64,000 bases of DNA from Escherichia phage CL1, in the sequence record OK040806. One strand, given 5' to 3'. The position numbers and the translations under genes are program-made. Under the pieces are notes generated by a model. The model worked only from the letters and a program-made list of their open reading frames with translations, was not told where the DNA came from and ran no database searches. Within the stretch, counting starts at the first letter, position 1. Each line of letters opens with the position of its first letter. This document shows positions 11,477-58,470 of the stretch, in pieces.

Positions 11477-11776
11477 TTAATCTGCCAGCCTTAAATTAAA
11501 ATTAACACCAAATTTTTCGCATACTTCCAACATAAACTCAAGAGAGACATTACCAGTGAGATTGATTATGTTGGATACACGAGCCTGAGAGATACCACAA
11601 ATTTTAGCAACTTGCTCTTGAGAAAGACCTCTGGATTTAATCTCTCTCTTAAAACGATGTGCAACGAAATCTCTCATTTCGTCTACATCCATTGGACAAA
11701 TATAACTCTCCATTTCAGCTTCTCTGTCAGCCTCCCAATCATCTTGTGGAGCATAAGGGTCAAAAACCTCATTCAT
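11477..11776 (-). CDS. helix-turn-helix DNA-binding protein
   Basis: HTH-like segment LSQEQVAKICGISQARVSNI; start moved to internal ATG (MNEVF) giving 8-nt overlap with upstream gene. Confidence 0.4.
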   Translation of the reverse strand: MNEVFDPYAPQDDWEADREAEMESYICPMDVDEMRDFVAHRFKREIKSRGLSQEQVAKICGISQARVSNIINLTGNVSLEFMLEVCEKFGVNFNLRLAD

Positions 11777-47010: not shown

Positions 47011-47031
47011 AGGCTCCTTCGGGAGCCTTTT
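47011..47031 (+). terminator. intrinsic terminator
   Basis: GGCTCC-TTCG-GGAGCC stem followed by TTTTT. Confidence 0.7.
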
Positions 47032-47051
47032 TCATTTCAGGAGATTGTTAA

Positions 47052-47399
47052 ATGACATTTAAAGAGTTCTGTCAAGCTACTTTCATAATTGTTTTCTTAG
47101 TTGGGGCAGGTGTCTGGGGAGGATACTCTTACAGAGACTACCAAGTTGCTGAAGCTGAGCTAAATAATGAGAAACTAATAAGTGTTGCCAAAGATGCTTA
47201 TCAGGAAGGTTTAGCCACACTCAGCACCAATTACAAAAATGATTTGAAAGATGTGCTTGCTAAGAATAAGCATACAAAAGAGGTACTAACATATGAAAAA
47301 ACTAAGCCAGAGTTTTATAATGTTTGTGTTACTGATAACTATGTCAGGGTGTTCAACGAACAAAGTGAACAGTACATTCAAAAACTCCCAAGTAAGTGA
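47052..47399 (+). CDS. i-spanin-like protein (N-terminal TM, periplasmic coiled coil)
   Basis: 115 aa; TM helix FIIVFLVGAGVWGGY then helical region; its 3' end overlaps a lipoprotein ORF in another frame. Confidence 0.3.
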   Translation: MTFKEFCQATFIIVFLVGAGVWGGYSYRDYQVAEAELNNEKLISVAKDAYQEGLATLSTNYKNDLKDVLAKNKHTKEVLTYEKTKPEFYNVCVTDNYVRVFNEQSEQYIQKLPSK

Positions 47400-49263: not shown

Positions 49264-50049
49264 ATGGGTATTGTGAAAATCATCAATGGTGATATCTTTG
49301 CAGCATTTGATAAAGGTAAGTTTGATGTCATCGGTCACGGTTGCAACTGTATGAACTTAATGGGTGCAGGTATCGCTGACAAGATTTCTAAACTTTACCC
49401 AAAAGCATATGAGACTGATACAGAAGTTTATCTGTATGCAGGTGGCATAGGCCACAAGCCCTGTGAGAATTTACTAGGCAATTTCTCTGTAGCACGTTTA
49501 AAACAAGGTCGTATAGCTAACCTTTACACTCAGCTTAAGACTGGTAAAGATGCCCGATACAGTGCTTTAGAGTCATCTTTGAAACAACTTAACAGATACT
49601 GTGAAGTAAATCAGTTGAAGAAAGTTGGCTTGCCTATGATTGGTGCAGGTATCGGTGGGCTAGACCCTCAAGCCGTCACAGTTATCATTAATCAGGTGAT
49701 GAAGAGTGTAGATGTGTATCTGTATGTCTACGAGACAAAGATGTACAACGAGTTACACTCAGGTTGGAAGAACTACTGCGAACCAGAATACTTTGCAGGT
49801 GTAGTAACGTTCACAGACAATACAGTTACCCTCTTCAGACGAAGAAAAGGTAAGATACATCAAAGTAACCCTCCGGTTGAGAAGATGTCTCTAAGTAACG
49901 CTCTAGTTACCCACCTGTCGAAGAGCAATCACAGGATAGCTGTAACATTTGGTAGTGATGCAGATACATATATCTATGCAAGAACTGATGAGGATATCGA
50001 GACGGTCTTCTCTTCACCAGAAGTTACCTTTTTAGGCGCAAAGAACTAA
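49264..50049 (+). CDS. macro-domain-like protein (ADP-ribose binding/processing fold) with C-terminal extension
   Basis: N-terminal INGDIF...DVIGHGCNCMNLMGAGIA and later GLPMIGAGIGGLDP resemble the two Gly-rich macro-domain motifs; ~100-aa unknown extension. Confidence 0.45.
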   Translation: MGIVKIINGDIFAAFDKGKFDVIGHGCNCMNLMGAGIADKISKLYPKAYETDTEVYLYAGGIGHKPCENLLGNFSVARLKQGRIANLYTQLKTGKDARYSALESSLKQLNRYCEVNQLKKVGLPMIGAGIGGLDPQAVTVIINQVMKSVDVYLYVYETKMYNELHSGWKNYCEPEYFAGVVTFTDNTVTLFRRRKGKIHQSNPPVEKMSLSNALVTHLSKSNHRIAVTFGSDADTYIYARTDEDIETVFSSPEVTFLGAKN

Positions 50050-50080
50050 GAAAATCTGTATAATATTCACAATAGACTAA

Positions 50081-50126
50081 GCCTTTCTTATCTGGTAAAT
50101 TTTTTCAGGTAAGGAGGGCTTTTTTT
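50081..50126 (+). terminator. long-stem intrinsic terminator after macro-domain gene
   Basis: GCCTTTCTTATCTG / CAGGTAAGGAGGGC 14-bp stem (three G-U) followed by TTTTTTT. Confidence 0.55.
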
Positions 50127-50320
50127 ATTTCAAGATTGTGCAGGTAGAGTTCTGTAGAGAAATCTGTAGAGAGAATTTTGAACTCCAAAGAGAAAATTCA
50201 TTTTCAAACTGTGCAGGTAATCTCCAAAGAGCTTTTTCATTTTCAAAACGTGCAGACCCCGCTCAGGTCGGGCAAGAAAAATCATTTTAGAATTGTGCAG
50301 GTAGGTGGGTGCAGGTGGGA
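50127..50320. repeat. four direct repeats of ~20 bp (consensus ATTTTCAAANTGTGCAGGTA), two inside tandem 40-bp units
   Basis: copies near 50127, 50199, 50238, 50283 plus GTGGGTGCAGGTGGG; tandem 40-bp units 50181-50220 and 50221-50260. Confidence 0.6.
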
Positions 50321-50479
50321 ATGTCGCCATTTCTCACAAGGCTACCACATCTGGAAATAAAAGTCAACAGAAAAATTTGTAGCGGATTGAAAAATAATTC
50401 TTGATTGTAGTTCTGTTTTGTGGTAGTCGCGCGCACCCGTTTCATTACAATTTTGCAAAAAATATTTTTAAAATTCCTA

Positions 50480-50508
50480 TTGACTCTTTGAGTATGGTTA
50501 TCTAATAT
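50480..50508 (+). promoter_or_regulatory. sigma70-like promoter TTGACT-17-TAATAT heading the small-gene array
   Basis: TTGACT 50480-50485, 17-bp spacer, TAATAT 50503-50508; ~45-nt leader with GGAG SD before ATG 50559. Confidence 0.6.
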
Positions 50509-50558
50509 TTGCATCAGACGGGCAAGCCAGCCCACTTCCTAAACTGGAGAATCTAAAA

Positions 50559-50765
50559 ATGCTTTACAGTCGCGAATTGATGGTTACAACTAACGTTAAC
50601 ACAGGTGTAAAACGTTTCTACATGCAAATCTGCGGCGTATGGTCCAGAATATCAGAAGATGACTATTGCAACTATGTAGGAACGGCTATTAATTCTAATT
50701 GCTATCTGACAAGAAACACTAAGAAATTTACAAGGCAGACAGCGATTTACTACTACGACAAATAA
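50559..50765 (+). CDS. hypothetical small Cys-containing protein (array gene 1)
   Basis: 68 aa; consensus promoter at 50480 and AGGAG-type SD upstream. Confidence 0.4.
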   Translation: MLYSRELMVTTNVNTGVKRFYMQICGVWSRISEDDYCNYVGTAINSNCYLTRNTKKFTRQTAIYYYDK

Positions 50766-50822
50766 AGTACTTTACAGGGGGCTTAAAAGCTGATATCTTA
50801 AGCCCCAGATAAAGAGCTTTAC
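50763..50822 (+). promoter_or_regulatory. cassette A copy 1: TAAAGTACTTTA palindrome, -35 TTTACA, inverted repeat GGGGGCTTAA-N11-TTAAGCCCC enclosing -10 (TATCTT), then ATAAAGAGCTTTAC
   Basis: TTTACA 50771-50776, 17-bp spacer, TATCTT 50794-50799; IR 50777-50806. Confidence 0.5.
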
Positions 50823-50853
50823 TAAATTAACCCTTAAACTAGGAGATTCAAAA

Positions 50854-51234
50854 ATGGCTTATCGTGCACCGAAATTCATCAACAAAGACAACTTCCGCAA
50901 CGCACTGGAGAAGTCACTTGATGAAAAATTTAACGGCAAATTGATTGTTGTTCACGCATTCAATTTTAAGTATGATATTAACGGGAATAAAATCAACCAT
51001 TACACGGCAACCATGTTAGATGGTACGCTATCAAGTGAAAAAGCCGTACTGAATGCACTTGCAGGACGTGGTAAAAACCTGATAAGATGCGATAAGAGAC
51101 GTTATCAGGGTGGCGCATATGGTTATGATGATGCTGTTTATCATCTTGAAAATATGGGCTATTCAGTGGAAAAAGCTGGAGTGTCTCAAATAATCGGCAG
51201 TGATGGTTATGTAACAATCTTCAAAATTAACTAA
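50854..51234 (+). CDS. hypothetical protein (array gene 2)
   Basis: 126 aa; preceded by cassette A and conserved GGAGATTCAAAAATG initiation region. Confidence 0.45.
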   Translation: MAYRAPKFINKDNFRNALEKSLDEKFNGKLIVVHAFNFKYDINGNKINHYTATMLDGTLSSEKAVLNALAGRGKNLIRCDKRRYQGGAYGYDDAVYHLENMGYSVEKAGVSQIIGSDGYVTIFKIN

Positions 51235-51294
51235 TAAAGTACTTTACAAGGGGCTTATAGTTCGATAAAGTAAGCCCCAGATAAAGAGCTTTAC
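51235..51294 (+). promoter_or_regulatory. cassette A copy 2 (GGGGCTTA-N13-TAAGCCCC; -10 TAAAGT)
   Basis: palindrome 51235-51246, TTTACA 51243-51248, TAAAGT 51266-51271, IR 51250-51278. Confidence 0.5.
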
Positions 51295-51322
51295 CACTAA
51301 ATCCTAAATTGGAGATTCAAAA

Positions 51323-51580
51323 ATGGCTATCATCAAAAACGTTGTAATTACTGCAAAGACTCGTGATGACGCTCGCATCATGGCGAAAAAGTTAGGCGGG
51401 AAAGTGGTTGACAACGGAAAACAATCTGCTGTAAGATGGGGCGTGAAGGCTGATAAAAAGTTAACCTTAAAACGCAGTTCAAATAACCTCTTTAAAGGTG
51501 TAAAATCACTCGGTAAAGTGAACGTGTTTACTAAACAAGGTTACAAAATGCACTTATCATTAACTGGCAATTTAATCTGA
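51323..51580 (+). CDS. hypothetical basic protein (array gene 3)
   Basis: 85 aa; cassette A upstream. Confidence 0.45.
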   Translation: MAIIKNVVITAKTRDDARIMAKKLGGKVVDNGKQSAVRWGVKADKKLTLKRSSNNLFKGVKSLGKVNVFTKQGYKMHLSLTGNLI

Positions 51581-51640
51581 TAAAGTACTTTACAAGGGGC
51601 TTATAGTTCGATAAAGTAAGCCCCAGATAAAGAGCTTTAC
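51581..51640 (+). promoter_or_regulatory. cassette A copy 3 (identical core to copy 2)
   Basis: palindrome 51581-51592, TTTACA 51589-51594, TAAAGT 51612-51617, IR 51596-51624. Confidence 0.5.
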
Positions 51641-51669
51641 TAACTAAATCCTAAACTGGAGATTCTAAA

Positions 51670-52182
51670 ATGAAAACTGTAGACGCTACCTTTGAAGTTG
51701 TAAAAGAAAAATTCACCATTATTTATGAAGCTGTCAATTGCTTTGAAGCAAGCCATAATCTTGATAATTGGAAGTTTACAGATGACCATCAAGGCGGCGT
51801 GACGATTAAAAATCCTAACTGTCAGAGTAATGAATTTAAATATGCAATCCCTTTGCATTACAGCCTTAAGCAGCTTTCAAGTGACTATGCAAAACAAGGC
51901 CGTGAGAATCCATCGAAAGAGGCTTACACGAGCTTACAGAAAGAACTAGAAAGGGATTTAGAGGCTTCAGAGTATAACATTGCCGCGAAAGTTGTAGATG
52001 CAAACGGTAGCACGGTTTTAGAGAGTTTTTATATTGGTTATGCTTTCGATTGGTGCTACAGTGACGGCGATGATTTAGATGACAGACTAAAAGAGGAAGT
52101 GAACAACGCAGACGCAGAATCTGAAGTATTAGAACGCTTGGAAGCATTAAAAGATTCAGTGATGAATATCTTTAAGAACTAA
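51670..52182 (+). CDS. hypothetical acidic protein (array gene 4)
   Basis: 170 aa; cassette A upstream. Confidence 0.45.
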   Translation: MKTVDATFEVVKEKFTIIYEAVNCFEASHNLDNWKFTDDHQGGVTIKNPNCQSNEFKYAIPLHYSLKQLSSDYAKQGRENPSKEAYTSLQKELERDLEASEYNIAAKVVDANGSTVLESFYIGYAFDWCYSDGDDLDDRLKEEVNNADAESEVLERLEALKDSVMNIFKN

Positions 52183-52184
52183 AT

Positions 52185-52242
52185 AGATTTCTTTACACGG
52201 GGCTAACAAGCGGATATGATAGCCCCAGATAAAGAGCTTTAC
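52185..52242 (+). promoter_or_regulatory. cassette A copy 4 (variant IR GGGGCTA-N14-TAGCCCC; -10 TATGAT)
   Basis: TTTACA 52192-52197, TATGAT 52215-52220, IR 52199-52226 with compensatory stem change. Confidence 0.5.
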
Positions 52243-52270
52243 TACTAAATCCTAAACTGGAGACTCTAAA

Positions 52271-52567
52271 ATGAAATTATCGAATAAAGTTCGTGAAAAC
52301 CTTAGTAAATTACTCAACAAAATTGATTTTATCGAGACATCAAGAAATAATCATGATGTTATGGAATGGTTGCACGGCAAAATAAAAGGCCGTCGCGTAG
52401 TGATTTGCTTATGGAATAGTTGCAGGGAGTATAAAAAGCCTGTATTGCAAATTAATGTTTATGATGATACTTTTAAAAGTCCTGTAAAGTCTAAAAGCGA
52501 TTTATTAGAATCCTATGAGATAACTGTAAATGGCAAAGTATCACGTAAAGAGGAAACACCATGTTAA
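52271..52567 (+). CDS. hypothetical protein (array gene 5)
   Basis: 98 aa; cassette A variant upstream. Confidence 0.45.
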   Translation: MKLSNKVRENLSKLLNKIDFIETSRNNHDVMEWLHGKIKGRRVVICLWNSCREYKKPVLQINVYDDTFKSPVKSKSDLLESYEITVNGKVSRKEETPC

Positions 52568-52893
52568 TGACTGGTATCACTGCAATCATTGCCATTTTCG
52601 CGCTATATAAGGCATATAAAGCCTATAATCTAGCAAATAAGGCAATCACACAGCAAGTTAGTAATAACCTTGTAGAGAGCTTTCTAGGGCGTTTAAGTGA
52701 TGAGCAAATAAAGCGGCTAGAGATGAGCTTCAGATATAAAGCGAAAACCTATCAGATAAGTGACATCTTCAAAGAGGATTTTCAGCTTGTCGATGATTAT
52801 AACTCACTGATAAATGCTTTAAATATCAGTGACTTAAAAGATTATTACGCTGTAATTGTCCAAGAACTGAACAAACGAAAACAAAACTGTTGA
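52561..52893 (+). CDS. hypothetical membrane-anchored protein (array gene 6)
   Basis: 110 aa; N-terminal TM helix (MLMTGITAIIAIFALY); overlaps previous gene (ATGTTAATG); no cassette of its own. Confidence 0.4.
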   Translation: MLMTGITAIIAIFALYKAYKAYNLANKAITQQVSNNLVESFLGRLSDEQIKRLEMSFRYKAKTYQISDIFKEDFQLVDDYNSLINALNISDLKDYYAVIVQELNKRKQNC

Positions 52894-52945
52894 CACTGAT
52901 TTTTAGATAACCTAAATTACTAATCAACGGGAGGGATGACCTCCC
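52890..52945 (+). promoter_or_regulatory. cassette B copy 1: promoter TTGACA-17-TAAATT plus 5' leader stem-loop GGGAGG-GATGA-CCTCCC
   Basis: TTGACA 52890-52895 (overlaps upstream stop), TAAATT 52913-52918, hairpin 52929-52945, conserved leader to ATG 52980. Confidence 0.55.
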
Positions 52946-52979
52946 ACTAAACAAAGTCCTTAAACTAGGAGATTCAAAA

Positions 52980-53252
52980 ATGTATACTACTAATAACGGT
53001 CGTACTCTAAATGTAACTTTGCGCCACTATGTTAACGGCGTGATGCACTTTGAAGATTTACAAGCTGAACAACATATCTTAGATTGGCAACTTGCAGGAC
53101 TACAAAAAACTGCTACAGGATACGGGAAAAAGATTCCAACTAGTTGGAAAGTATACTATGAAGGGCGTTTGCGCAGAATTTATCAAGATGTATACAGCAA
53201 TAGCGCAACAAGTTACATCATGGTAAAAGGTAAAAAATTACACTTAGTATAA
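52980..53252 (+). CDS. hypothetical protein (array gene 7)
   Basis: 90 aa; cassette B upstream. Confidence 0.45.
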   Translation: MYTTNNGRTLNVTLRHYVNGVMHFEDLQAEQHILDWQLAGLQKTATGYGKKIPTSWKVYYEGRLRRIYQDVYSNSATSYIMVKGKKLHLV

Positions 53253-53309
53253 AGTACTTTACAAGGGGCTTATAGTTCGATAGAGTAAGCCCCAGATAAA
53301 GAGCTTTAC
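53250..53309 (+). promoter_or_regulatory. cassette A copy 5 (-10 TAGAGT)
   Basis: palindrome 53250-53261, TTTACA 53258-53263, TAGAGT 53281-53286, IR 53265-53293. Confidence 0.5.
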
Positions 53310-53338
53310 TACTCAATCCTAAATTGGAGAACTTAAAA

Positions 53339-53743
53339 ATGGCTATTAATAACCGTGAGTTATCAATCTTAAAAGCACGTTTGACCGTTAACCGGATTAA
53401 TGTTATTACGTCATCAGCACCGGACGAAACATTACACAACATTATTGGGAAGATTCAAAGTGTTATCTTAGACGTTGAAAGCGTAAAAAACTCATTGGCT
53501 GACGTTGCAGCAGGTATCACGCTAGACGGTGCACAATATGAAATGGCTGACATGTTAGGCAAATCAAAGGTAATGAATAAAGAGCTTGATTTAAAAATGT
53601 TCCGTTTTGCCGTGAAAGTGTGGCTATCTGTCGAGTATGACGCAAATTTTGCAATCGCTGACTTTTTCGCAACATGGTTGCAACGTAATTTAACAAATTA
53701 TGATTTTCGTGATATCTGTGACGCAATTTACGCAGAACTCTAA
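53339..53743 (+). CDS. hypothetical protein (array gene 8)
   Basis: track start is TTG; ATG at 53339 sits at the conserved distance from the cassette A SD. Confidence 0.45.
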   Translation: MAINNRELSILKARLTVNRINVITSSAPDETLHNIIGKIQSVILDVESVKNSLADVAAGITLDGAQYEMADMLGKSKVMNKELDLKMFRFAVKVWLSVEYDANFAIADFFATWLQRNLTNYDFRDICDAIYAEL

Positions 53744-53752
53744 AAAATTTTA

Positions 53753-53808
53753 TTGACACTGATTTTTAAAACAAGTAAATTACTAATCAACGGGAGGGAT
53801 GACCTCCC
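53753..53808 (+). promoter_or_regulatory. cassette B copy 2
   Basis: TTGACA 53753-53758, TAAATT 53776-53781, hairpin GGGAGG/CCTCCC 53792-53808. Confidence 0.55.
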
Positions 53809-53842
53809 CACTAAGTAAAGTCCTTAAACTAGGAGATTCAAA

Positions 53843-54043
53843 ATGGCTATTATCAACGGTTTAAACATTGAAACTACTCATATCAAAGATATCAAAGTTG
53901 GCGATGTAGTCCTTTCCCACGGCGTAGAAAAAACTGTCACTGCAAAGGATATTAAAGAGGATTCTTTCATGGGTAGGACTCTCTTCGGTGATTCTTATTG
54001 CTTAGGTTATCTTGCAGTTTTAAAAGTTGTCAAAAATAACTGA
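53843..54043 (+). CDS. hypothetical protein (array gene 9)
   Basis: 66 aa; cassette B upstream. Confidence 0.4.
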   Translation: MAIINGLNIETTHIKDIKVGDVVLSHGVEKTVTAKDIKEDSFMGRTLFGDSYCLGYLAVLKVVKNN

Positions 54044-54103
54044 TAAAGTACTTTACAAGGGGCTTATAGTTCGATAAAGTAAGCCCCAGATAAAGAGCTT
54101 TAC
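54044..54103 (+). promoter_or_regulatory. cassette A copy 6 (-10 TAAAGT)
   Basis: palindrome 54044-54055, TTTACA 54052-54057, TAAAGT 54075-54080, IR 54059-54087. Confidence 0.5.
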
Positions 54104-54138
54104 CACTAAATCAAGTCCTTAAACTAGGAGATTCAAAA

Positions 54139-54702
54139 ATGAAATGCTATCACGGAACTACACTCAAAAACTTTGTAAACCTGCTGAATGGTGGCGATAA
54201 GCCTGAAGGTATCTGGAACTGTTCCTACATGGACGATTGTTTCTATGTTTACCCAATGAATAAGGTTATCAAAATGGGATGTCTGGAAGATGAAGAAGAT
54301 TCTTACATCCGTGAACGCTGCATTCAAAGTGCCTTAGAGTCGGGGCTTATTACGGCTGCTTTCCAAATGGAAACGCAGGACGTGATTGTTATTGAAATGG
54401 ATATCCCAGAGGAAGAACTAGAGGACGATTATTCTTGTGACAACATGAGCGAAATTGCCAGCTTTACCGGATACTTTGATAAAAATTGGATTGTTAGCAT
54501 CCACTCAACGAAATTTAGTGCGATGTATGCACCTTTCTTTGTACCTGATACGAAAAACCGCAACTTGGGATATGTTGACGATGATTTGTTGAGTATTGCA
54601 AAAATTGTACAGAATAGCGGTGATAGTTCCGTGTTTTGTGACCTACTGGATAAAATCACGGAAAACCTCACAGAACGCAATTTAAAGGACTTTTTAGGAT
54701 AA
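54139..54702 (+). CDS. hypothetical protein with ADP-ribosyltransferase-like N-terminal motif (array gene 10)
   Basis: 187 aa; N-terminus MKCYHGTTLKNFVNLLNGG resembles the [FY]HGT NAD-binding strand of H-Y-E-class ARTs, Tyr cluster SYMDDCFYVY follows; motif-level only. Confidence 0.35.
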   Translation: MKCYHGTTLKNFVNLLNGGDKPEGIWNCSYMDDCFYVYPMNKVIKMGCLEDEEDSYIRERCIQSALESGLITAAFQMETQDVIVIEMDIPEEELEDDYSCDNMSEIASFTGYFDKNWIVSIHSTKFSAMYAPFFVPDTKNRNLGYVDDDLLSIAKIVQNSGDSSVFCDLLDKITENLTERNLKDFLG

Positions 54703-54765
54703 GCAGTACAAAGACACCAACTTTTAACTTAAGGCCCACACAGGGCCATTTAGAGGGCTTCAAAC

Positions 54766-54999
54766 ATGCTTACAACCGTTTATCTTATCCTTTCTATTTG
54801 TAATGGTCATTCATGTGATTTTAAAGGGCTTGAGGAGTTTACAGGAAGTAAAGAAAATGCCGTTCAGGTCTGTCAGATAGCAAGACAAGACTACCCCGCC
54901 AGTGATGATATACAATGTTACTTTAAGACAGAAGATGAAGAGGGTATCTATTTCGATAGTGTAGACGGGCAATATGAAATTATCATTGAAAAAGACTAG
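54766..54999 (+). CDS. hypothetical protein (array gene 11)
   Basis: 77 aa; hydrophobic N-terminus; no cassette, short hairpin upstream. Confidence 0.35.
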   Translation: MLTTVYLILSICNGHSCDFKGLEEFTGSKENAVQVCQIARQDYPASDDIQCYFKTEDEEGIYFDSVDGQYEIIIEKD

Positions 55000-55053
55000 A
55001 CAAGCCTGATAAAAGTCTGTAAATTGTCAATCAACGGGAGGCGATAACCTCCC
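54997..55053 (+). promoter_or_regulatory. cassette B copy 3 (-35 TAGACA; loop CGATAA)
   Basis: TAGACA 54997-55002, TAAATT 55020-55025, hairpin 55036-55053. Confidence 0.5.
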
Positions 55054-55088
55054 AACTAAACAAAGTCCTTAAACTAGGAGATTCAAAA

Positions 55089-55430
55089 ATGGCTTATGTA
55101 ACCGTAATTACCAATAAAGAAGATTCATCTTGGTCAACTCAAGTAAGCGATAAGATGTCACCTATGCAGTGCCTAAAATACTTTGAGCAATGGAACAAAG
55201 GCGAGGATACCAGCCCCTTTCAAGTGATGCAGATTATCCATACAGATAACGAAGGGAATAAAACTGTTTTGAATAGTGAGTACTATGCAACCAGATTCGA
55301 AACGAGAAGTAAAGCAATGAAGCTCTTACGTGAATCCGGTTATTCTCATATTGCCGCGCTAATCTGGGATGACCTGCTAAAAAATCAGCGTATCAGCTAC
55401 GTAAAACCTGAAAAAATATTCATCAGTTAA
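55089..55430 (+). CDS. hypothetical protein (array gene 12)
   Basis: 113 aa; cassette B upstream. Confidence 0.45.
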   Translation: MAYVTVITNKEDSSWSTQVSDKMSPMQCLKYFEQWNKGEDTSPFQVMQIIHTDNEGNKTVLNSEYYATRFETRSKAMKLLRESGYSHIAALIWDDLLKNQRISYVKPEKIFIS

Positions 55431-55559
55431 TCAATAACTTACAAAAAACTTTTAAAAAAGTGTTGACAATACCCCTTGACATTGGTAACTTTGTTCGAGG
55501 GGGTTTATCTAAAAGGGATTAACTTAAAAGATTCTTTATAGATAAACTTAAAAAATTGC

Positions 55560-55621
55560 TTGCAATCAGATATCAAAACAAGTAAATTACTAATCAACGG
55601 TGAGGGAATGAACTTCCTCAC
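55560..55621 (+). promoter_or_regulatory. cassette B copy 4 (-35 TTGCAA; compensatory stem GTGAGGGA/TTCCTCAC)
   Basis: TTGCAA 55560-55565, TAAATT 55583-55588, hairpin 55600-55621; extra TTGACA boxes at 55463 and 55476. Confidence 0.5.
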
Positions 55622-55653
55622 TAAATAAAGTCCTTAAACTAGGAGATTCAAAA

Positions 55654-56828: not shown

Positions 56829-56838
56829 TCGACGCAGC

Positions 56839-56888
56839 GGGGCTAAATAGCCCCAGATACCTTTACAGCCCCTTAAATGGGCTTTTTT
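56839..56888 (+). terminator. array-terminal hairpin pair: GGGGCT-AAAT-AGCCCC then intrinsic terminator
   Basis: hairpin 56839-56854; second stem AGCCC-loop-GGGCT 56867-56883 followed by TTTTTT. Confidence 0.6.
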
Positions 56889-58470
56889 ACGTCTTATTAA
56901 ATCCTTTCCCTTTCCTTTCCAGAATCTTACTAGACCTTAAAAGCAATAACTCTATAGTCTACTCTATAGCCTTTTATCAAATCAACTTAAATATAAGCCC
57001 ATAACCCGAAAGGGAAGGGCAACCATTTAAACGCTCTATAAAGCCCTATAACAGCCTTATCAACCTAACTTAAGGGATTGCATTACTCCACGCTTAAAAG
57101 CTCTTTATAAAGCTTCTCAGAGCCTTAAAAGAATCTTATAAGGGTGTAAGCTTTATCATCTCGTTAGTATCTTGTGAATAACTAAAAAGGGCTTGTTAGT
57201 GTCTTAAAAGTATGTTATAGGGGCTATAAAGTTGCTTAAAAGTTGCTATAAAGTTACGTAAATGCTAGCCCCCTTAACATTTTCTTAACAAATTTTTAAC
57301 AATCCCTACATAGTTATGCTTTTAAGGCACTTGTTAACAACTTGTTAGCCCCTTGTTAAATCTCTGTTAAGACCACGTAAAAGCCTTGTAAGAGTCTTTG
57401 ACATAGCCTTAAAAGCTCCTGTAAAGCCCTATAAAGAGCTTTCTATATAGTTGGGGTGCAATTACTAGGGAGAGGCTTAAAAGAGCTTACAAAGAGCTAT
57501 AGAGAGCTTTTAAGAGGGCTATTTAAAGGGTCACTAAGAGGGAAAGGGAACTATAGACCAAGAGATAGTGACCATGTTAATAGCTTGTTAAAAAGATTAA
57601 ACACTTGTTAGGAACTTGTTAATTATCTTAACAAAATAACTCTTAAAAATTAACTTGTTAGCTCTTGTTAGTCATCTGTTAAGACTCTGTAAAGCCTACG
57701 TATCAACTGTTAAAAAACTGTTAAGCTCTTGTTAGTTCTGTTAAGAATCTGTTAAGACCTCTGAAGAGATGTTAAGAAGATGTAGCAACTGTTAAGAGAT
57801 TGTTAATGATATTTTAAAATTTTGCAAAGGGGATGTTACAGGGATGTTAAGGGCTACCAAGCAGATATATATCTTCTACAGATATTTTTGAGTTCCTTCA
57901 AAGACCCTAAAAAATGACTTGATAGCTCTATTTTATAAAAATTTTAAAATTCTGAATAATTACCTAGACAGTCTTTTAAAAATACAGGTAGAAACAGGCT
58001 TATAAGATACCTTGTTAGTACCGTGTTAGACCTTGTGAGATAAGGTCTGTAAAGATATTCCTGTTAAGTTTGCTAAAACAGTCTATATAGAGGCTTAGTA
58101 TTTCCTAGTGAACACCTATAGAGAGTGTCATAGCTGACATAGAGATTAAGAGGTGTATAGGAGCTTCTAAGAGGGTATAGAGGGATGGTTAAGGTGATTG
58201 TATAGGTTGTTAAGAAGGCTTGTTAGAAGAGTGTTTAAAGGGCTTGTTAGAGGGTTATTTAGAAGGCTTATACAGAGGGGCTATTAAGACCACTAGATAG
58301 TGACTAAGATACTATATAGTACTATATAACTATATAGAGAGTAAGATTAAGAAGGTTGTTAAGAAGGGTAGATATTTTATTCACATATGATGGTGACCCA
58401 GAGGTTGGGACAACCGATGAAATTTTATAAAAATTAAAAAGCCCCCAATTAAGGAGGCTCTTAAGATATT
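56889..58470. repeat. 1.6-kb ORF-free region dense in short degenerate repeats
   Basis: no ORF of 60 aa or more on either strand; >30 copies of YTGTTAR often phased ~11 bp (57330-57830); CTTAAAAG/CTATAAAG family (56930-57300); ACTATATA x3 (58308-58340); lies between convergent blocks. Confidence 0.7.

Follow-up and report, generated by a model that had tools for sequence, protein, structure and literature searches.

Direct-repeat clusters tested in the early regions of phages have mostly proved to be replication origins, as in lambda, SPP1 and the lactococcal phages. Classical iterons follow each other regularly at a spacing of about 22 bp, that is, two helical turns, and are accompanied by an adjoining AT-rich unwinding element and linked to an initiator gene. 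At oriE of phage T4, conserved "iterons" lie beside an early promoter and their role is still undefined (Vaiskunaite et al. 1999, reviewed in PMC3016281); these repeats are 12 nt long, evenly spaced and located among repEA/repEB at a mapped origin. Here, a stretch of 64,000 nt of Escherichia phage CL1 (sequence record OK040806), hereafter the window, was analysed for an array of four direct repeats, which is placed in a 509-bp gap free of open reading frames (ORFs), 50050-50558, behind the terminator of a macro-domain gene. The sequence comparisons show that this element is genuine, occurs once per genome, does not code for protein and has been under purifying selection in four genera. No description of it was found in the papers searched; as a cis element shared across the subfamily it belongs to a familiar general kind, and its closest analogue is the T4 oriE iteron cluster.

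Similar to oriE, the array is a short cluster of direct repeats in a lytic myophage, syntenic in the relatives and situated beside an early host-type promoter. In contrast to oriE, its cores are about 22 nt long, unevenly spaced (73/39/45 bp) and fused to a terminator, and the two clusters have no sequence similarity. The array resembles the iteron origins of lambda (four O-protein sites), SPP1, R6K, pSC101 and P1 in having at least three non-palindromic sites of about 20 bp in the same orientation at one locus per replicon; the definition of iterons as at least three same-orientation direct repeats of about 17-22 bp covers it, and the bipartite core is compatible with a two-domain binder, as for classical iterons. 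However, the spacing of about 22 bp is absent here, no initiator gene was recognised next to the repeats and no clear AT-rich unwinding element adjoins them, and the array was not assigned to any of the families compared.

The initial annotation of this DNA had placed four direct copies of about 20 bp between a terminator and a promoter, and this arrangement was confirmed. Four same-strand cores of about 22 nt start at 50125, 50198, 50237 and 50282 and together span 50125-50303, while 0.00 copies of the 22-mer at no more than 3 mismatches are expected by chance (100 shuffles). The core consensus, TTCATTTY-N6-GTGCAG, is bipartite and non-palindromic; its information content is maximal in TTCATTT and GTGCAG, with six variable positions between them. 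Further copies of the core were found neither in the 64-kb window nor in the complete 87.6-kb genome of the relative UAB_Phi87, and the block contains direct repeats only, with no significant inverted repeats inside it. Copies 2-4 sit in longer units of about 39-45 nt, each consisting of a purine-rich box (CTCCAAAGAG or GTCGGGCAAG), an A5/T5 tract and the core (Table 1). The claim that two copies form "perfect tandem 40-bp units (50181-50260)" did not survive, since the period is 39 and then 45 nt, the identity is 82% over 34 nt for the pair lying 39 nt apart and 71% for the third unit at +45, and Tandem Repeats Finder made no call at the array even at score 30. Unit 4 is the closest of the window units to those of the Erwinia phages (GGTCTGGCAAGAAAAATCATTTTCGATTTGTGCA). 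The spacer between R1 and R2 contains a CTGTAGAG/CTGGACAG motif (50146-50180) that is kept in relatives, and it may represent a decayed fifth repeat unit because the R1-R2 distance of 73 bp is about 2 x 37. A CRISPR-like or tandem array was rejected, as the cores are 22 nt long (below 28), the spacers of 15-50 nt are orthologous between genomes and the repeat finder made no call.

Table 1. Features of the ORF-free gap behind the macro-domain gene (window coordinates)
Feature	Position	Strand	Remarks
Intrinsic terminator of macro-domain gene	50079-50126	+	17-bp-stem hairpin 50079-50121, then T7
Repeat core R1 TTATTTCAAGATTGTGCAGGTA	50125-50146	+	Fused to terminator tail
Spacer with 12-nt tandem pair AGAGTTCTGTAG / AGAAATCTGTAG	50146-50180	+	Repeat family analysis
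Unit 2: box CTCCAAAGAG, A/T tract, core R2 TCATTTTCAAACTGTGCAGGTA at 50198-50219	50181-50219	+	
Unit 3: box CTCCAAAGAG, CTTTTT, core R3 TCATTTTCAAAACGTGCAGACC at 50237-50258	50220-50258	+	
Unit 4: box GGTCGGGCAAG, AAAAA, core R4 TCATTTTAGAATTGTGCAGGTA at 50282-50303	50263-50303	+	
Hypervariable segment, G-rich allele with partial copy GTGCAGGTGGG at 50309-50319	50304-50357	.	Alignment, G-quadruplex scan, contig breaks
Cross-genus conserved block AAAAGTCAA...GAAAAATAATTCTTGATT	50358-50429	+	Alignment
Sigma-70-type promoter TTGACT-17-TAATAT of first small ORF	50480-50508	+	Promoter scan; conserved in alignment

The upstream terminator is likewise real: the hairpin with its T7 run has a free energy of -22.7 kcal/mol (z = -6.0) and is conserved in the alignment, and the same terminator is entered for Felix O1 as t13, with -21.8 kcal/mol, in Table 2 of the genome paper (Whichard 2010, PMC3185647). 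Its T-tract doubles as the 5' end of repeat copy 1. R1 adjoins the T-run directly in all four genera, also in the lineage of finno, Si3 and EcoM2, where the terminator stem is another one. A second terminator was seen at 47012-47052 (GGCTCCTTCGGGAGCC plus TTTTTCATTTCAGGAG); its tail, CTTTTTCATTTCAGGA, is the same as the start of repeat copy 1 in relatives and is followed directly by the ribosome-binding site of the next gene.

The conservation of the array in related phages, proposed as a check in the initial annotation, was followed by a MAFFT alignment of 27 distinct gaps and by scans of sequence collections comprising 2.9 million viral contigs. The window belongs to a Felixounavirus: its 49500-51500 segment agrees at every position (100% identity) with Escherichia phage C600M2 (OK040807.1; Felixounavirus, Ounavirinae), and about 200 further Felix-O1-like phages share 92-95% identity with it. 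The gap was matched by 288 phage records, compared with 299 records having TerL at an identity of at least 60% (the Ounavirinae level), and the array proved syntenic, lying at one position right after the macro-gene terminator, in Felixounavirus, Suspvirus (SUSP2), Mooglevirus and the Erwinia Kolesnikvirus. The cores are spaced at 73/39/45 bp in Felixounavirus and Suspvirus, 75/41/45 in Mooglevirus and 37/37/39 in Kolesnikvirus; the core of the latter is TCATTTTCAATTTGTGCATAG, and the Erwinia-phage matches to the gap query lie at query positions 148-250. Within Felixounavirus, the finno, Si3 and EcoM2 lineage has three cores (75/45) and a different terminator stem. The copy number is thus essentially constant, 4 or, in this one lineage, 3, over about 290 genomes. 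Arrays with 3-4 cores occurred exclusively in Ounavirinae contigs of 84-90 kb, and no genuine array was present in 185,579 prokaryotic species genomes (one each), in E. coli genomes or in plasmids. Mimicry of a host or plasmid element was rejected, the sole prokaryotic match (L118) being an unrelated tandem repeat of Prevotellaceae.

The conservation is concentrated in the cores, where agreement with the three-genus consensus is 0.81 compared with 0.66 in the spacers and 0.55 in the remaining gap. Identity to the Moogle- and SUSP2-type phages is 84-90% in the block, 78-82% in the macro gene and 72-77% in the first small ORF. The four copies persist even between genera with macro proteins of only about 64% identity. 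Moreover, copy-specific variants recur between genera, namely GCAGA in copy 3, which is common to Felixounavirus, Suspvirus and Mooglevirus, and TTTTAGAA in copy 4. The four copies are therefore older than the genera and each has been maintained, rather than being recent duplicates or homogenised repeats. The array is also kept unchanged in some relatives that lack the first small ORF. Mosaic breakpoints fall at core edges: in finno, Si3 and EcoM2 the homology is taken up again at R3, and directly behind R4 the hypervariable segment begins. Among the records matched, those labelled "Staphylococcus phage SA1" and "Campylobacter" phage (GU169904.1 etc.) contain a Felix-O1-type gap at an identity of at least 87%, which suggests host mislabelling or contamination, and "Salmonella phage vB_SenM_SB18" (MK759884.1) shows a match pattern like that of the Erwinia Kolesnikvirus phages.

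Several conventional identities of such a block were examined and rejected. A protein-coding ORF is excluded as no frame is free of stops across the block in L024, L025 and phiEa21-4, and the minus-strand frame is closed also in L003 and L008; the genera differ by indels of 2 and 4 nt, and the frames of the small ORFs annotated here in some GenBank records are not conserved. A structured or known RNA was not supported either, since there was no Rfam match at the gathering threshold and only chance-level ones at E up to 10, and the folding of the two strands did not differ from that of shuffled sequences (z = -0.09 and +0.30). The scan for sigma-70 promoters (-35/-10 at 16-18 bp) found none on both strands of 50125-50303, thus a promoter cluster was discarded. 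An informal by-eye comparison with consensus sequences gave no fit to sigma-54, sigma-E, sigma-32, the MotA box or the T4 late consensus, and nothing for IHF, Fis, OmpR, PhoP, CRP and NtrC sites, only DnaA giving a partial likeness. A cluster of DnaA boxes (TTWTNCACA) was rejected as well, the reverse complements of the window cores (ACCTGCACA or GTCTGCACG) matching at 6/9 positions and the cores of E. coli and Salmonella phages at 6-7/9; the four cores of phiEa21-4 (L036 2491-2635), read on the opposite strand (CTATGCACA or TTATGCACG), reach 8/9.

The remainder of the gap is more variable. The extra GTGGGTGCAGGTGGG piece that had been listed with the repeats is present at 50306-50320, but it belongs to an allele-specific hypervariable segment outside the conserved array. 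Two unrelated alleles of this post-R4 segment were distinguished, a G-rich one (GGTGGGTGCAGGTGGG...) in the window and a C-rich one in Felix O1 (L037), UAB_Phi87, SUSP2 and Moogle-type phages; in phiEa21-4 a C-rich tract likewise follows the array. An inversion as the origin of the two alleles was rejected because neither is the reverse complement of the other. On its complementary strand, the C-rich allele (L011 4041-4095) has a canonical G-quadruplex motif, GGGGAGAGGGGGAGTAAGAGGGGGAGAGGGG, one of two in the UAB_Phi87 genome, while the motif scan detected none in the window. The TTGACT-17-TAATAT promoter described downstream of the repeats was recovered by the promoter scan (Table 1), and the A+T-richest stretch nearby, 50450-50489 (82% A+T, 99.7th percentile), abuts it. 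The upstream/-35 part of this promoter is duplicated (AAAATAATTCTTGATT vs AAAATTCCTATTGACT, 50388-50429 vs 50470-50508), the second copy being degenerate. The promoter-like degenerate copy in the cross-genus block has TTGATT at 50401-50406, a 17-nt spacer and TAGTCG, and it is doubtful that it acts as a promoter because its -10 box lacks the final T. The duplicated pair recurs in Moogle-type phages (AAAATAATTCTTGACT / AAAAATTTTCTTGACT in L027), thus the gap seems to have been assembled from duplicated regulatory pieces. On the minus strand, a candidate leftward extended -10 promoter, TTGACT-17-TGgTAGCCT, lies at 50367-50339 and would read antisense through the repeats; its -35 box (AAAAGTCAA on the plus strand) is kept in all genera and its -10 box is found in the G-rich allele only.

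To the left, the gap is bordered by the macro-domain gene (49264-50049, 261 aa, Pfam Macro) and, to the right, by ORF 50559-50765, the first in a run of small genes with no assigned function. Macro is the only Pfam domain among the neighbours of the array, and the PHROG families matched by the flanking genes are without DNA-binding or replication annotation and of unknown function, save a "phosphatase"-labelled family for the macro gene. Exactly at the array, the gene organisation switches to promoter/hairpin cassettes, and the distance to the right genome end is 7.7 kb, or 8.8% of the 88,159-bp genome. In Felix O1, the mode of temporal transcription control is not known according to the genome paper, and the expression maxima of the small-gene-array genes are mixed, at 5 min and 25 min (PMC3185647). 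In 50766-55653, the small-gene spacers are two alternating, near-identical cassettes of about 88 bp: type 1 has TTTACA overlapping a GGGGCTTA..TAAGCCCC hairpin and then AGATAAAGAGCTTTAC, and type 2 has TTGACA..TAAATTAC followed by a CAACGGGAGGG..CCTCCC hairpin. They recall the promoter-early stem-loop (PeSL) cassettes of T4-type phages. The surroundings of the array are PeSL-like in that it heads a series of promoter/hairpin cassettes and its cores lie at mosaic breakpoints, whereas the array units themselves have neither promoter consensus nor hairpin and flank no ORFs. The only recognisable sequence-specific DNA binder met in the window is a 99-aa Xre/Cro-type helix-turn-helix protein encoded on the minus strand at 11480-11776 (Pfam HTH_3, E = 4e-11).

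Because the motif is unique, asymmetric, bipartite, arranged head-to-tail, individually conserved and non-coding, we consider it probable, with some reservation, that the array is a set of protein-binding sites on duplex DNA. It would provide four, ancestrally perhaps five, head-to-tail cis sites for one sequence-specific DNA-binding protein. The TTCATTTY and GTGCAG blocks, about one helical turn apart, would suit a two-domain or monomer-type binder like those reading plasmid and phage iterons, and, once occupied, the sites would make up a nucleoprotein complex some 180 bp long, beginning on the t13 T-tract and used once per genome. The binder is probably phage-encoded, since the 3' half of the core is changed in every Erwinia-phage copy (GTGCAGGTA to GTGCATAG). 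A single site per genome suggests replication initiation, packaging, entry control or domain boundaries as the candidate processes, and packaging was set aside because the repeat-dense terminal-repeat region already accounts for it. The base rates from the direct-repeat clusters tested in other phages and the T4 oriE parallel led us to rank replication initiation first, and we tentatively propose that the sites may serve as an iteron-type origin or as an origin-auxiliary site; replication would then start near early sigma-70 promoters, as at T4 oriE. The iteron-like binding sites of the initial annotation are thus upheld in so far as they are not due to chance, are conserved in four genera with copy-specific variants and above the level of their flanks, and are left after the exclusion of coding, RNA and promoter alternatives, while neither of the two specific functions attached to them, an origin and a regulator of the small-gene array, was shown.

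A number of observations weigh against this interpretation and especially against its origin part, which had been put forward at the outset and stays our first choice. No binding protein was identified, and no initiator gene was recognised nearby from the Pfam domains and PHROG families of the neighbours, although an initiator of unrecognisable type near the array is possible. Xre-type proteins, whose window copy is moreover far from the array, normally bind palindromes. The spacing is irregular and genus-dependent, in contrast to that of classical iterons. The flanks of the cores are ordinary in A+T content, 50290-50349 is G+C-rich, and the 82% A+T stretch is 150 bp off and looks like a promoter upstream element. 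The cumulative GC skew has no inflection at 50.2 kb, although skew in this genome follows transcription, and the site lies within a long block of rightward transcription and not at a point of transcriptional divergence. Furthermore, the phage has a T7-type primase-helicase, and in T7 this enzyme needs no iterons. Finally, an origin role leaves the tight fusion of copy 1 to the terminator unexplained.

This fusion is accommodated by the reading ranked second, which we regard as a lesser possibility. The bound array, t13 and a downstream C-rich, rut-like tract would together form a transcription boundary or insulator that keeps transcripts of the long rIIA-to-macro operon from running on into the terminal small-gene array; in a variant, the array would modulate termination at t13. 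In this reading, it would split two transcription domains with no direct control of the small-gene promoters. The terminator and copy 1 have the T-tract in common in all four genera, also with a different terminator stem, and the element lies exactly at the switch to promoter/hairpin cassettes. The free energy of t13 is the lowest among the Felix O1 terminators compared (PMC3185647), yet a terminator of -22 kcal/mol should not require help, and others with the CTTTTTCATTT tail, for example at 47027, are without repeats. Downstream of the array, genomes of the Felix O1, SUSP2, Moogle and phiEa21-4 types have a tract rich in C and poor in G, but the window allele has a G-rich segment in its place, and four individually conserved sites seem excessive for a roadblock. 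The similarity of tails could alternatively mean that the repeats are decayed tandem duplications of a terminator tail (G/C-rich arm + T5 + CATTTT...), having no present function and persisting passively or as patches of recombination homology. The 5' part of each unit indeed resembles the generic terminator tail CTTTTTCATTT(C), also found at 47027, the 3' arm of the Moogle-type terminator aligns with box A of other units, and mosaic breakpoints coincide with core edges. This explanation is nevertheless unlikely, as copy-specific variants persist across genera, conservation exceeds that of the flanking genes, and the copy number is near-constant over about 290 genomes, where neutral tandem repeats would decay or vary. 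We find it just as hard to favour an operator array for a regulator of the first small-gene promoter(s), as the initial annotation had also suggested. The position upstream of the first sigma-70 promoter (50480) and the mixed 5-min/25-min maxima of the Felix O1 genes, which imply some temporal control, are in keeping with it, but the nearest core ends 176 bp upstream of the -35 box of that promoter, the motif was found neither in the dozen other promoter cassettes nor elsewhere in the genome, and the array is unchanged in some relatives lacking the first small ORF.

Two further readings have still lower probability. If the element acted in RNA, an RNA-binding protein or RNase would bind or process the repeated UCAUUUUCAA..GUGCAG motifs in transcripts reading through t13 or in antisense RNA. 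The units are rich in A and U and would be unpaired, and the candidate allele-specific minus-strand promoter at 50367-50339, predicted from the sequence, could transcribe the repeats. However, this promoter is not kept in phages with the C-rich allele, a strong terminator precedes the array, neither strand folds better than shuffled sequences and Rfam gave no match, all of which make an RNA-level role very unlikely. Scarcely more can be said for a DNA-entry or anchoring checkpoint, which was considered by analogy with the proposed "injection stop signal" of T5 (Repeat Region 3; Davison, bioRxiv 10.1101/866236), a 1.2-kb region of inverted repeats, palindromes and paired DnaA boxes. Similar to the array, the T5 region consists of untranslated repeats that are better conserved than the ORFs around them and lie where a terminal block of small early genes, here 7.7 kb long, has its inner border, and this border lies at 8.8% of the genome in our phage and at 7.9% for the T5 first-step-transfer DNA. 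In contrast, the T5 region is inside a terminal repeat of about 10 kb, whereas here the terminal repeat measures about 0.6 kb and is 7 kb distant, and only four direct repeats with a DnaA-box match of 6/9 are present. To our knowledge, Felix O1-type phages are not known to inject their DNA in two steps. By occupying the four sites, a protein of the host or the virion would pause the delivery of the genome or organise it, giving the terminal host-takeover genes priority; if this improbable reading were true, Felix-O1-type myophages would use an unrecognised two-step or staged DNA transfer.

Least credible of all is that the array marks a physical genome end or a pac/cos packaging site. In lambda cosB, the terminase small-subunit sites R3-R2-R1 are about 16-20 bp long and lie tens of bp apart at uneven distances. 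The array shares these short sites and irregular intervals with cosB, which, however, adjoins the cutting site, while here 7 kb separate the array from the mapped end, which has a dense field of repeats itself. Two metagenomic contigs (L012 and L014; IMG sample 3300045988) stop at the same base, about 40 nt past the last repeat, L014 running on into the Nextera adapter CTGTCTCTTATACACATCT, and the GenBank record of phage KhF1 ends within the terminator. On the other hand, the contig breaks lie in the hypervariable C-rich, G-quadruplex-forming tract, which differs between co-occurring strains, thus they likely reflect assembly or sequencing difficulty. UAB_Phi87's 608-bp direct terminal repeat was mapped by Bal31 digestion and run-off sequencing (Bardina et al., PMC4837284). 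It aligns to 57276-57860 of the window with 92% identity, the last 20 nt being exact; therefore, the array is 7 kb away from the genome end. The terminal repeat lies inside a 1.6-kb stretch (56829-58470) without a plausible gene, where only a 51-aa GTG ORF (57456-57611) is found. This stretch is dense in short repeats with a period of about 11 bp (TGTTAAGA / CTTAACA / TGTTAGC), and the genes flanking it are transcribed towards it from both sides. Another contig, L019 (4007-4198), is chimeric, bacterial-looking DNA being joined after GGTCGGG between repeats 3 and 4.

The array is not mentioned in the Felix O1 genome paper, which lists direct repeats of at least 24 bp, nor in the UAB_Phi87, PhageMaP/Bas63 and Bas63 cryo-EM papers, and the literature searched contained no mapped replication origin for the Felix O1 group. 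The typing of Salmonella, its biocontrol and phage therapy make wide use of Felix O1 and its relatives, and Bas63 is on its way to becoming a model phage. In engineering such phages, one may be tempted to use the "empty" gap of 509 bp as an insertion site, but it is probably not neutral. The array is among the very few non-coding sequences held in place throughout the subfamily, and its four 22-bp sites offer a concrete and cheap experimental target. If the array acts as a transcription boundary, it would account for the insulation of the terminal array of host-takeover genes against the operon upstream; if it is an origin, it would show how replication starts in a phage that has a T7-type replisome and no RNA polymerase of its own.

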